Virus record (IMG/VR): IMGVR_UViG_2541047428_000017 | Length of the DNA stretch: 5,204 nt | DNA from: a virus | Lineage: Duplodnaviria > Heunggongvirae > Uroviricota > Caudoviricetes | Strand: one strand, 5' to 3' | Program-made: the position numbers and the translations under genes | The notes under the pieces: generated by a model | Told to the model about the DNA's origin: nothing | The model's input: the letters and a program-made list of their open reading frames with translations, nothing else | The model's database searches: none | Part shown: one piece after another, positions 2,243-5,204 of the stretch | How positions within the stretch are numbered: position 1 is the first letter of the stretch | Layout of the letters: each line of letters begins with the position of its first letter

Positions 2243-4180
2243 ATGACATTTAAACATTATGATGTTGTCAGGGCGGCGTCGCCGTCAGACCTTGCGGAAA
2301 AGCTGACACACAAACTGAAAGAGGGCTGGCAGCCGTTTGGTAGTCCTGTGGCCATAACCCCTTATACCCTGATGCAGGCGATTGCCGCGGAGGGGGATGT
2401 GACCACGCCAGTGGTTGTGCCCGGCACGGGGGATGGTGGCTATCCGGGAGTGGTCACCACGGAGCCAGATTATTACTACGTTATTCCACTGGCCGGGCAG
2501 TCGAACGGCATGGCTTACGGTGAGGGGCTTCCTCTGCCGCAGACATATGACCGTCCTGACCCGCGTATAAAGCAACTGGCTCGTCGCAGCACAGTGACGC
2601 CGGATGGCGCTCCCTGTAAATATAACGACATTATTCCGGCAGACCACTGTCTGCATGATGTACAGGACATGAGCCGTCTTAACCATCCGAAAGCTGACCT
2701 GTCGAAAGGTCAGTACGGAACCGTGGGGCAGGGGCTGCATATTGCCAAAAAGCTGCTGCCGTTTATACCGGCGAATGCGGGTATTCTTCTGGTTCCGTGC
2801 TGCCGTGGTGGTTCAGCTTTCACCACCGGGGCAGATGGAACATACAGTGACGTGACCGGTGCCTCAGAGAGTTCTACCCGCTGGGGTGTGGGCAGGCCGC
2901 TGTATAAGGATCTCATCGGTCGTACAAAAGCCGCGCTGGCAAAGAACCCGAAAAATGTGCTGCTTGCCGTGGTGTGGATGCAGGGGGAATTTGACTTTGA
3001 CGGAACGCCAGCAAATCACACAGCCCGTTTTACAGAAGTAGTGGAACAATATCGTACGGACCTTGCAGATATGGTGGGACAGTGCGCTGGTGGTTCTGCT
3101 GACGGTGTTCCCTGGATATGTGGAGACACAACTTATTTCTGGAAGCAGAAGAGCGAATCCACTTACCAGACGGTGTACGGCAGTTACAAAAACAAAACGG
3201 AAAAGAATATTCACTTTGTGCCGTTCATGACCGATGAGAACGGAGCAAATGTCCCGACGAACAAACCGGAAGAAGACCCGGATATTCCGGCATCAGGATA
3301 TTACGGTGCGGCCTCCCGGACGTCGGCAAACTGGACGTCAGCAGACCGTGCGAGCCATTTCAGCTCATGGGCACGCAGGGGGATTATTTCTGACCGTCTT
3401 GCCTCAGCGATTCTTCTCCATGCAGGACGGACGGCTGAACTGGTGGGTGGGGAACAGGTTGTGATGCCGCCGGATGAGAAGCCGTCACCGGACACACCAT
3501 CAACACCGTCAACGGACGGGAAATCAGTGACAACGCTGCTTTATTACCGTGCAACAGAGTCAGGTGGTTTACTGAATCCGCAGGGATGGGGAGCTGAAGG
3601 AGGGCGTGCATTGGTAGTTGATGATGCAGGTGCTGCAGGAGGTAAGGCGCTGAGGTGGACCAAACAGACAGGAAGTTCCTCGTGGTTTATGCAGCATGAT
3701 GCCGGTAATGGCGCAGACCTGCTGGAGAAGGGCGGGCTTATCAGTTGTCGTTTTAAAGTTGATGGCACACTGACAGCTAATCAGTACGCACTGGCGCTGT
3801 ACTGGCCGGTTTCTTCACTGCCTCAGGGTGTCACACTGGAAGGTAATGCCGGTCATAACCTGCTGGCGTCGTTTTACGTACAGAGCGATGCCACAGACCT
3901 TAATGTGATGTACCACAAGGGAAATGCTGGTCAGAACACGAAGCTGGGGTCATTCGGCGCATTTGATAACGAATGGCATACGCTGGGCTTCCGTTTTGCC
4001 GGTAACAACAGTATTGAGGTGACGCCGGTCATTGATGGTAAGGACGGGACGCCGTTCATGCTGTCACAGTCACCGGTCGGCACGTTTACGGCAGACAAAT
4101 TGCGCGTGACCGATATCACTAGCGGTGCGACATATCCGGTGCTGATTGAAAGTATAACAGTGGAAGTGAATAACCCGTAA
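2243..4180 (+). CDS. nanS-p: prophage NanS-p-type sialate O-acetylesterase (645 aa): N-terminal DUF1737-like region, SGNH/SASA esterase domain, Pro/Ser/Thr linker, C-terminal beta-rich domain
   Basis: ATG at 2243 with GGGAGG SD 4-9 nt upstream (the listed TTG at 2186 is less likely). GQSN catalytic-serine motif of the sialate O-acetylesterase family at nt 2495-2506 (Ser87). PST-rich linker PPDEKPSPDTPSTPSTDG at about nt 3466-3520. Length and position (after phage tRNAs, before the lysis genes) match the gene found downstream of stx in Stx phages. Confidence 0.88.
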   Translation: MTFKHYDVVRAASPSDLAEKLTHKLKEGWQPFGSPVAITPYTLMQAIAAEGDVTTPVVVPGTGDGGYPGVVTTEPDYYYVIPLAGQSNGMAYGEGLPLPQTYDRPDPRIKQLARRSTVTPDGAPCKYNDIIPADHCLHDVQDMSRLNHPKADLSKGQYGTVGQGLHIAKKLLPFIPANAGILLVPCCRGGSAFTTGADGTYSDVTGASESSTRWGVGRPLYKDLIGRTKAALAKNPKNVLLAVVWMQGEFDFDGTPANHTARFTEVVEQYRTDLADMVGQCAGGSADGVPWICGDTTYFWKQKSESTYQTVYGSYKNKTEKNIHFVPFMTDENGANVPTNKPEEDPDIPASGYYGAASRTSANWTSADRASHFSSWARRGIISDRLASAILLHAGRTAELVGGEQVVMPPDEKPSPDTPSTPSTDGKSVTTLLYYRATESGGLLNPQGWGAEGGRALVVDDAGAAGGKALRWTKQTGSSSWFMQHDAGNGADLLEKGGLISCRFKVDGTLTANQYALALYWPVSSLPQGVTLEGNAGHNLLASFYVQSDATDLNVMYHKGNAGQNTKLGSFGAFDNEWHTLGFRFAGNNSIEVTPVIDGKDGTPFMLSQSPVGTFTADKLRVTDITSGATYPVLIESITVEVNNP

Positions 4181-4193
4181 GCAGGAAAAAAAG

Positions 4194-4233
4194 GCCGCCG
4201 GGGCAGGGAAAACAAGGAGCCAGAACCGGCGGC
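4194..4233 (-). terminator. weak terminator-like hairpin, readable on the - strand
   Basis: 8-bp GC stem GCCGCCGG/CCGGCGGC (4194-4201 with 4226-4233) with a long 24-nt loop; the A7 run at 4186-4192 is a U-tract after the hairpin on the - strand. The long loop makes it doubtful. Confidence 0.2.
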
Positions 4234-4327
4234 AAATGTCGTTATATCCAAAGCAAAACATGCAGGACACTTTTTTAACCAACAGGTATTAACGATGTCA
4301 ACACCATATCAATAACCGGGAGGGATA

Positions 4328-4510
4328 ATGAGATTTGTACAGCTTATTTTATTGTATTTCTGCACGGTGGTGTGCACGTTATATCTGGTAAGTGGCGGGT
4401 ATAAGGTTATCCGGAACTATATACGCAAAAAGATTGATGCCGCGGCGGCGGAAAAAATCAGCGCCAGCCAGTCAGCCGGAACAAAACCCGAAGAGCCTCT
4501 CATTTCGTAG
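4328..4510 (+). CDS. hypothetical small protein (60 aa) with a hydrophobic N-terminal segment, possible single-pass membrane protein
   Basis: ATG at 4328 with GGGAGGG SD (4318-4324); N-terminal stretch LILLYFCTVVCTLYLV followed by a charged, Ala-rich tail; sits between the esterase and the holin. Confidence 0.45.
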   Translation: MRFVQLILLYFCTVVCTLYLVSGGYKVIRNYIRKKIDAAAAEKISASQSAGTKPEEPLIS

Positions 4511-4547
4511 CAACTTTCTTAACAACACCTTTCAACGAGAAAATCCC

Positions 4548-4817
4548 ATGTCAGAAATAAAATCTCTGGTCACTGCTGAAGCAGTGAAGGACGTCCTGCG
4601 CTCTGAAGAAGTCAGAAGCGCACTGAAACAGCAACTCCGCCAGAATCTTGAGGCGCGTCTTGATGCTGAAGTGGATGCCATTCTGGATGAGCTGCTGGGG
4701 GGACCGGCTGCTCCTGAGCCTGAAGACGGCGCGGGTGACAGTGCTGTTTCAGATGGCGTTGTGTCTCAGCCTGACGGTAGCAGTGAGCCTCAGCCTGGCG
4801 GCGAAATGATGATGTAA
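4548..4817 (+). CDS. hypothetical acidic small protein (89 aa)
   Basis: ATG at 4548 with only a weak GAGA SD. The frame is also open from GTG 4392 and ATG 4437, but those starts lack an SD and overlap the previous ORF. Acidic, Pro/Gly-rich C-terminus ending EMMM. Confidence 0.4.
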   Translation: MSEIKSLVTAEAVKDVLRSEEVRSALKQQLRQNLEARLDAEVDAILDELLGGPAAPEPEDGAGDSAVSDGVVSQPDGSSEPQPGGEMMM

Positions 4818-4892
4818 CCATACGCAGGGGCTGTCGGTGTGAGCTGATGCCCCTCCTGTTGTTGTGAGCTTCCGGATTGCGGGAGACGGGGT

Positions 4893-5108
4893 ATGTACCA
4901 GATGGAAAAAATCACAACGGGTGTGTCATACACCACGTCAGCGGTGGGGACGGGATACTGGTTACTGCAGCTGCTGGACAAAGTCTCTCCGTCCCAGTGG
5001 GTGGCGATAGGTGTGCTGGGGAGTCTGCTGTTTGGCCTGCTGACGTATCTGACTAACCTGTATTTCAAAATCAGAGAGGACCGTCGTAAGGCGGCGCGGG
5101 GAGAGTAA
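4893..5108 (+). CDS. S: S21-type class II holin (pinholin), 71 aa
   Basis: GGGAGA SD 7-12 nt upstream of ATG 4893. Two predicted transmembrane segments ([16 protein letters not shown] and [23 protein letters not shown]) and charged tail [13 protein letters not shown], close to phage 21 S as I remember it. Met1 and Met4 (MYQM) form a possible dual start. Confidence 0.85.
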
Positions 5109-5112
5109 AGCG

Positions 5113-5204
5113 ATGAAGAAAAAATACGAACTGGTTGTTAAAGGGATAAATAATTACCCGGATAAGATTACTGTTACTGTGGCACTGGAAATTGGTGGGT
5201 ATCC
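5113..5204 (+). CDS. 5' end of a downstream gene (first 30 codons; truncated by window end), product unknown
   Basis: ATG at 5113 with GGAGAG SD at -13 to -8, starting 4 nt after the holin stop. N-terminus MKKKYELVVKGINNYPDKITVTVALEIGGY is hydrophilic, not a Gly/Ala-rich SAR segment. Confidence 0.5.
   Translation, partial: MKKKYELVVKGINNYPDKITVTVALEIGGY

Follow-up and report, generated by a model that had tools for sequence, protein, structure and literature searches.

Here we show that the open reading frame (ORF) at positions 4548-4817 of the window, the whole stretch of 5,204 nucleotides of phage DNA that was analysed, is almost certainly a bona fide protein-coding gene and a member of the DUF826 prophage family. 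It very probably belongs to a portable cargo module, made up of an esterase gene, a DUF1378 gene and the DUF826 gene, and not to the lysis cassette. The explanation that accounts best for the observations as a whole, namely a real gene, a member of this module and a product that acts as a binding adaptor, appears to us fairly probable. The 89-aa ORF itself is already known, as a routinely annotated member of a named family, and adds nothing to gene catalogues.

The window contains, in order, a small ORF, a DNA methyltransferase gene, two tRNA genes, the esterase, DUF1378, DUF826 and holin genes, and the start of a YdfR-family gene. The features discussed below are the following.

2243-4180, + strand: gene for a NanS-p-type sialate O-acetylesterase (DUF1737, SASA and DUF6645), the first gene of the module, assigned from Pfam and synteny.
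4328-4510, + strand: DUF1378 gene, 60 aa (PF07125, E = 5.8e-40).
4529-4547, + strand: conserved translation-initiation region with a weak Shine-Dalgarno sequence, delimited by near-invariance in 28 distinct upstream sequences.
4548-4817, + strand: DUF826 coding sequence, 89 aa and stop codon (PF05696, PHROG 311, PGAP coding sequence).
4548-4700, + strand: conserved helical domain, codons 1-51, which is the DUF826 domain proper (dN/dS of about 0.10, invariant residues, AlphaFold2 model).
4701-4814, + strand: disordered, acidic tail rich in Pro, Gly and Ser, with the hydrophobic tip MMM (composition, pLDDT, dN/dS of about 0.45).
4826-4854, + strand: hairpin of uncertain status in the 75-nt spacer between the DUF826 and holin genes (RNA fold).
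4893-5108, + strand: gene for a class II (phage 21 S-type) holin, 71 aa (PF04971, E = 1e-32).

The ORF runs from an ATG to a TAA on the + strand, and the coordinates, the length and the letters given for it in a preliminary description of this DNA all match. Residues 1-73 of its product align with positions 1-73 of the 75 in the DUF826 profile (118.7 bits, E = 1.2e-34), above the curated gathering cut-off of 25 bits, and residues 1-89 align with positions 1-85 of 85 in PHROG 311 (E = 4.2e-38); NCBIfam gave no DUF826 match. The DUF826 core (R18, S19, R31, N33-E35 and R37-L46) is present in the window protein, 16 residue columns are invariant among 24 DUF826 protein sequences, and the conserved N-terminal core is kept even in members at 39-48% identity. 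RefSeq/PGAP has a coding sequence at identical coordinates in E. coli O157:H7 prophages (WP_001289717.1, "DUF826 domain-containing protein"), and the window protein is identical to it. The ORF had been described as a possible unannotated accessory protein of the late region; it is indeed a real late-region gene, but the existing PGAP coding sequence makes "unannotated" wrong. In the records of Stx phages, DUF826 homologues appear as hypothetical proteins, for example VT1-Sakai H0030 and P13374 ORF49, and the record note of H0030 compares its product to 933W L0106. In the searchable literature, DUF826 and DUF1378 receive only a passing mention, a single sentence in which DUF826, placed between nanS-p and S, is called a domain of unknown function (PMC10462455). 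The same literature yielded nothing relevant for L0106 with 933W or for ECs1208, ECs1209, Z1467 and Z1468, and no report of translation of the DUF826 ORF was found in it.

The pattern of substitution is that of a gene. The set analysed consisted of 30 distinct nucleotide sequences taken from IMG/VR viral contigs, GenBank phage records and one E. coli genome. Over codons 1-51 the pooled dN/dS is about 0.10 and the variable columns number 4/4/24 at the first, second and third codon positions; over the tail codons the corresponding values are about 0.45 and 17/23/29. An independent estimate from the Mu-like clade gave a dN/dS of 0.13 for the helical part and 0.23 for the tail. All length differences among homologues are of whole codons (a 12-codon deletion, a 4-codon insertion and others), giving variants of 74-101 aa. 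The preliminary description had named frame-breaking indels, or a lack of purifying selection, as what would speak against the ORF. Neither was seen: every indel is in frame, and the helical half is under purifying selection in both the lambdoid and the Mu-like sequences, so the coding reading holds.

A helical N-terminal half and an acidic tail rich in Pro, Gly and Ser had been suspected from the letters, and the model and the composition bear out both. AlphaFold2, run with a 24-sequence alignment, predicts a short helix at residues 10-17 and a long one at residues 20-50, with block-mean pLDDT values of 88-98 over residues 11-50; past residue 51 the model is disordered, and pLDDT is below 50 at residues 60-85. 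Residues 52-89 contain eight Asp or Glu, no Lys or Arg, and 47% Pro, Gly and Ser. The whole protein has a net charge of -12, a pI of 4.06 and a GRAVY of -0.40, and no transmembrane segment was found in it, as none of its hydrophobic stretches is long enough to cross a membrane. The sequence and length of the tail vary by clade, and it is almost always acidic and free of Lys and Arg. Its C-terminal tip is hydrophobic across divergent clades (MMM, MML, TML, TTL or AMM) and is MMM or MML throughout the 30-sequence set. Distant DUF826 members match the Pfam profile at positions 1 to 51-54 only.

The long helix carries a hydrophobic residue at every fourth position (L26, L30, L34, L38, V42, L46 and L50), and its hydrophobic moment peaks near 90-92 degrees per residue, not 100, which suggests that the hydrophobic seam of the helix wraps round a partner or another copy of DUF826. 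A sequence search of the PDB with the family profile returned nothing credible (best E = 0.32), and a Foldseek comparison of the AlphaFold2 model with the PDB gave no match with E below 8, an expected outcome because the model is a single helix.

The genomic context places DUF826 with the esterase. Among the 91 lambdoid loci of our first set, 85 have the order esterase, DUF1378, DUF826, holin, and the remaining six end at a contig edge or are without a detected holin; wherever a lambdoid holin was detected, it lies immediately downstream of DUF826 (90 of 91 loci). The order is still seen where the DUF826 protein shares no more than 39-48% identity with that of the window, and the window itself fits the module order, with the esterase, DUF1378 and DUF826 genes one after the other. 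A homologue that is 43% identical (P0119), found in 910 blocks of the collection index, occurs in Mu-like E. coli prophages. There the order is a tail-fibre assembly gene, the gin invertase gene, esterase, DUF1378, DUF826, a stem-loop with a T-run, com and mom, and the esterase consists of SASA and DUF6645 without DUF1737. All 33 Mu-like loci in IMG/VR are consistent with this order, 25 of them spanning gin or the esterase gene to com/mom, and none of the 33 has a holin next to DUF826. The Mu-like block occupies positions 15070-17647 of locus L107 and 2669-5246 of locus L103, and the L107 prophage is inserted in bcsA.

Wherever the flank of an IMG/VR locus is long enough to show it, the gene next to DUF826, on the upstream side, is DUF1378. 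A tblastn search of 50,697 phage records found 307 with a match to DUF826, 309 with a match to DUF1378 and 342 with a match to the esterase C-terminal domain (DUF6645), and the breakdown by organism name is nearly identical for DUF826 and DUF1378; a separate search with the esterase C-terminal domain gave only E. coli fragments. DUF826 and DUF1378 are essentially an obligate pair, which as a rule travels with the esterase gene in a block of three cargo genes. What puts a holin gene next to DUF826 is the insertion site in lambdoid prophages and not the gene itself. The ORF had first been described as lying immediately upstream of the holin gene. Its position is as stated, with the holin start at 4893, 75 nt past the DUF826 stop, but the link to the holin is positional only, as the Mu-like loci show. 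Moreover, in Stx1_499-type Stx1a phages a gap of 447 nt (L146, positions 3457-3903) with neither DUF1378 nor DUF826 separates the gene for a divergent NanS-p esterase, its C-terminal domain 38% identical, from that for a holin of the same type. Phages with an esterase and a pinholin but neither of the two small genes indicate that the pair is dispensable to both. The linkage of DUF826 to DUF1378 could also be one of block inheritance rather than function.

Taken together, these observations show a DUF826 protein of two parts. The first, of about 51 residues, is helical and strongly conserved, and is mainly one long amphipathic helix; the second is a fast-evolving, disordered, acidic tail, of which the composition and the hydrophobic Met/Leu tip are kept. 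Because it has neither a signal peptide nor a transmembrane segment, the protein is predicted to be soluble and cytoplasmic, and it may work as an adaptor through protein-protein binding. The helix would serve as the binding or oligomerisation surface, and the acidic tail with its hydrophobic tip might make a second contact, electrostatic and of low specificity. DUF1378, the constant neighbour, has a single transmembrane helix at its N-terminus and, towards its C-terminus, a basic part with a net charge of +3, and this basic cytoplasmic part would be the likeliest partner; the charge complementarity of the two proteins is weak support for binding. That DUF826 binds a partner, with the basic part of DUF1378 as the simplest candidate, is a tentative idea that we put forward with rather low expectation. 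The DUF826-DUF1378 pair would then be a dispensable accessory, either to the esterase module or to membrane events late in infection. Several observations sit poorly with an adaptor of DUF1378 or of the module: distant DUF826 members exist without DUF1378 or the esterase, the linkage could be mere block inheritance, and a DUF1378 homologue stands without DUF826 in the lysis cassette of Stenotrophomonas phage BUCT709.

It is conceivable, if doubtful, that DUF1378 and DUF826 make up a unit of two proteins, new to the literature, that accompanies the sialate esterases carried on virions. The pair does ride with NanS-p-type esterases in lambdoid prophages, including Shiga-toxin prophages, and in Mu-like prophages. 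Were such a unit real, it might be, for example, a device anchored in the membrane for release or targeting, or a pair of the holin/antiholin kind, and it would control when or how the esterase or the phage exits the cell, apart from the canonical holin-endolysin-spanin set.

The position of the gene in lambdoid phages also raises the question of a role in lysis. DUF826 could be an accessory of lysis timing, that is, a cytoplasmic antiholin-like or holin-chaperone-like modulator of the phage 21-type holin, the acidic tail of which might bind the basic cytoplasmic C-terminus of the holin, possibly together with DUF1378. The constant place directly upstream of the holin gene in the lambdoid loci agrees with this, as do the charges, since the last 14 holin residues have a net charge of +3 against the -12 of DUF826. 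In phage BUCT709 (L148, positions 5001-5153), the lone DUF1378 homologue follows the genes for a lysozyme and an Rz-like protein, a location inside a lysis cassette that favours a lysis-related reading. However, purifying selection is just as strong on the Mu-like copies, which have no holin in their vicinity and are followed directly by a stem and T-run, as read from the sequence, and the Stx1_499-type phages use the same holin type without either small protein. The absence of a membrane-spanning stretch further means that DUF826 itself is not a holin or antiholin. We consider a lysis-timing function unlikely. An outright holin or antiholin identity was rejected: there is no transmembrane segment, the matches to holin-family Pfam profiles belong to the next ORF only, and an association confined to lysis cassettes is contradicted by the 33 Mu-like loci, where the gene lies between gin and com/mom.

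The region between DUF826 and the holin gene offers few regulatory signals. Folding of positions 4812-4895 gave -32.5 kcal/mol with z = -1.8, a weak and non-significant value, and a second stem lies near the holin start codon; the spacer hairpin may affect translation of the holin or may be what is left of a terminator. A scan of positions 4100-5204 found no promoter-like site and no convincing + strand terminator. The small RNA 24B_1 has an in-silico binding site reported "upstream of S and vb_24B_23" (PMC4426718); in the window, no complement of it was found within three mismatches, the best ungapped pairing being 8 nt, and this candidate was discarded. The holin N-terminus, MYQMEK, has in-frame Met codons at M1 and M4 (4893-4904 of the window), and the Stx1_499 record annotates a 68-aa form from the second Met. 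The S gene of phage 21 has a dual-start arrangement, and by analogy the M1 and M4 codons may be another; residues 2-3 of the window holin carry no extra positive charge.

NanS-p-type esterases are linked to the growth of enterohaemorrhagic E. coli on mucin sugars. They have also been linked to the virion: according to a 2026 preprint (bioRxiv 10.64898/2026.04.10.717836), the phi24B NanS-p homologue gp84 is a capsid decoration protein that forms a hexamer, attaches by DUF1737 to the centres of the hexons, and undergoes a delayed autoproteolysis once released. These two links make the small genes obvious candidates for accessory roles there. One such role would be that of a helper in the assembly or maturation of the esterase, with DUF826 as a small helical chaperone in the cytoplasm, or as a factor that keeps the esterase from being processed or active too early. 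In line with this, DUF826 and the esterase are inherited together in two phage backbones that are unrelated to each other, the phage-record counts of the two are close (307 and 342), and the phi24B esterase is a virion protein with delayed autoproteolysis. Among the rows listed for the phi24B virion proteome, gp84 is abundant, a downstream ORF at 26115-26705 has a single count and no ORF starts at 25xxx, the stretch that follows the end of gp84 at 25248 and that by synteny holds DUF1378, DUF826 and S; DUF826 gives few tryptic peptides. Absence from these listed rows is what one expects of a chaperone. It is also weak evidence against a role in the virion structure and against the label "head completion protein", which DUF826 homologues carry in two GenBank records and for which we found nothing in support. 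Set against an esterase helper are the Mu-like esterases, which are without the capsid-binding DUF1737 and still keep DUF826, the distant DUF826 members without an esterase, and the obligate membrane-protein partner DUF1378, which this role leaves unexplained. We judge it improbable, to about the same degree as a function in lysis timing.

A function against host defences has far less in its favour. The protein is strongly acidic (net charge -12, pI 4.06) and its gene is located where temperate phages collect cargo genes, so that one could think of an acidic DNA mimic or anti-defence protein of the Ocr or ArdA kind, or of a part of a prophage defence or exclusion system. However, DUF826 gave no PADLOC match and no sequence or fold match to solved structures, and its acidity resides in a fast-evolving disordered tail, not in a folded DNA-like surface. 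The timing of a late operon is unsuited to an anti-restriction gene, and the lambdoid location would thus bring the protein at the wrong time. Such a function is very unlikely.

The last alternative concerns the reading frame itself. The preliminary description had considered that the region might be an untranslated leader, or that translation might start at GTG 4392 or ATG 4437 instead of ATG 4548. It rightly called the Shine-Dalgarno sequence of ATG 4548 weak, since only GAG, at -12 to -10, is present. The frame upstream of this ATG is open for 45-66 codons in all homologues, which explains why some databases hold forms of 109-154 aa, and PHROG 8301 models a long form of the protein. GTG 4392, which would give a 141-aa product, and ATG 4437 are both in frame, as had been noted, but the start is not ambiguous, because the beginning of the profile and the variation in the DUF1378 frame both point to ATG 4548. 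The two upstream codons lie inside the DUF1378 gene, in a frame other than that of DUF1378, and the variable columns of the overlap at 4392-4510 number 16/12/24 in the DUF1378 frame versus 12/24/16 in the DUF826 frame; the third-position peak in the former indicates that only DUF1378 is constrained there. The DUF826 Pfam profile begins at M1 of MSEI, and the 141-aa form matches it only from its own residue 53. ATG 4548 itself is conserved among homologues, and the block CTTTC(A/G)ACGAGAAAATNCNATG before it is nearly invariant in 28 distinct upstream sequences, the remaining spacer being variable. In the Mu-like homologue, as read from the sequence, a strong AAGGAG stands in front of the equivalent ATG. 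Judging from these comparisons, the start codon is ATG 4548, and the peptide (M)SEIKSLVTAEAVK would be a marker of initiation there. With codon-position periodicity, a dN/dS of about 0.1 from ATG 4548 onward and in-frame indels also against it, the reading as an untranslated leader of the holin message or as a long form has next to no likelihood. Two database calls of unusual structure were noted: P0020, a chimera of 103 aa in which the holin N-terminus is joined to DUF826, and P0084, of 135 aa, in which the C-terminal part of DUF1378 is joined to DUF826. Both are probably artefacts of deletions or frameshifts in individual assemblies.

A profile search of 1.84 billion representative proteins gave only 49 DUF826 matches at E up to 0.001, and the named matches of the first protein search are all from Escherichia or Shigella. 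Among GTDB species-representative genomes, none of the 296 pattern matches was confirmed, so that the family is rare in such genomes, if present at all. Within E. coli, the 1-kb region at 4200-5204 is 100% identical to prophages in many O157:H7 genomes and matches 2436 of 5426 complete genomes (about 45%), the number of places per genome having a median of two and a maximum of 15. The most distant members are short-tailed and come from an enterobacterium whose rpoE-rseABC region shares about 85% identity with the E. coli one, so that the host is probably of a genus other than Escherichia. In these loci (L108, positions 6001-8944, and L109-L111), the DUF826 gene follows Rz/Rz1; next come four genes, for proteins of 178 aa and 287 aa, a Methyltransf_23 protein and a protein of 212 aa, and then the terminase gene, with neither the esterase nor DUF1378 present.

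Over its full length, the window shares 99.9% identity with a prophage of O157:H7 strain PV15-279. The DNA methyltransferase gene at 389-1446 is split in the window into ORFs 389-1111 and 1090-1446 by a frameshift near 1070, a 1-nt deletion in an A-run (GGAAAAG to GGAAAG), and is intact, at 352 aa, in the PV15-279 prophage; the split gene is either a pseudogene or the product of a homopolymer sequencing error. A second 1-nt difference from that prophage is located in a T-run at 243. Both tRNA genes lie between the methyltransferase and esterase genes, one at 1487-1562 with the anticodon CAT, called Met by ARAGORN and Ile by PGAP, and a tRNA-Arg (TCT) at 1643-1719.

Finally, DUF826 can be compared with known systems. 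Like antiholins and other regulators of lysis timing, it is small, is encoded beside a holin gene in a late operon and has a charge complementary to the cytoplasmic tail of the holin. Unlike antiholins, of which the longer S product of phage 21 is an example in lambdoid phages, it lacks a transmembrane segment and does not stem from the holin gene; its conservation extends to loci with no holin alongside, and the holin in turn occurs without DUF826. T4 gp57A is a small, all-helical, acidic phage assembly chaperone of about 80-100 aa, which DUF826 may resemble by analogy in its size, predicted helicity and acidity. The likeness to chaperones of this type might extend to the location of the gene beside that of a virion-attached enzyme and to the absence of the product among the virion rows listed for phi24B. 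However, no sequence or fold similarity to such chaperones is detectable, and DUF826 has a long disordered tail and a membrane-protein partner. With the DUF826 and PHROG 311 family, the window protein shares a near-full profile coverage, the length class and the position between DUF1378 and the holin gene, and as no difference was found, it is a member of that family.
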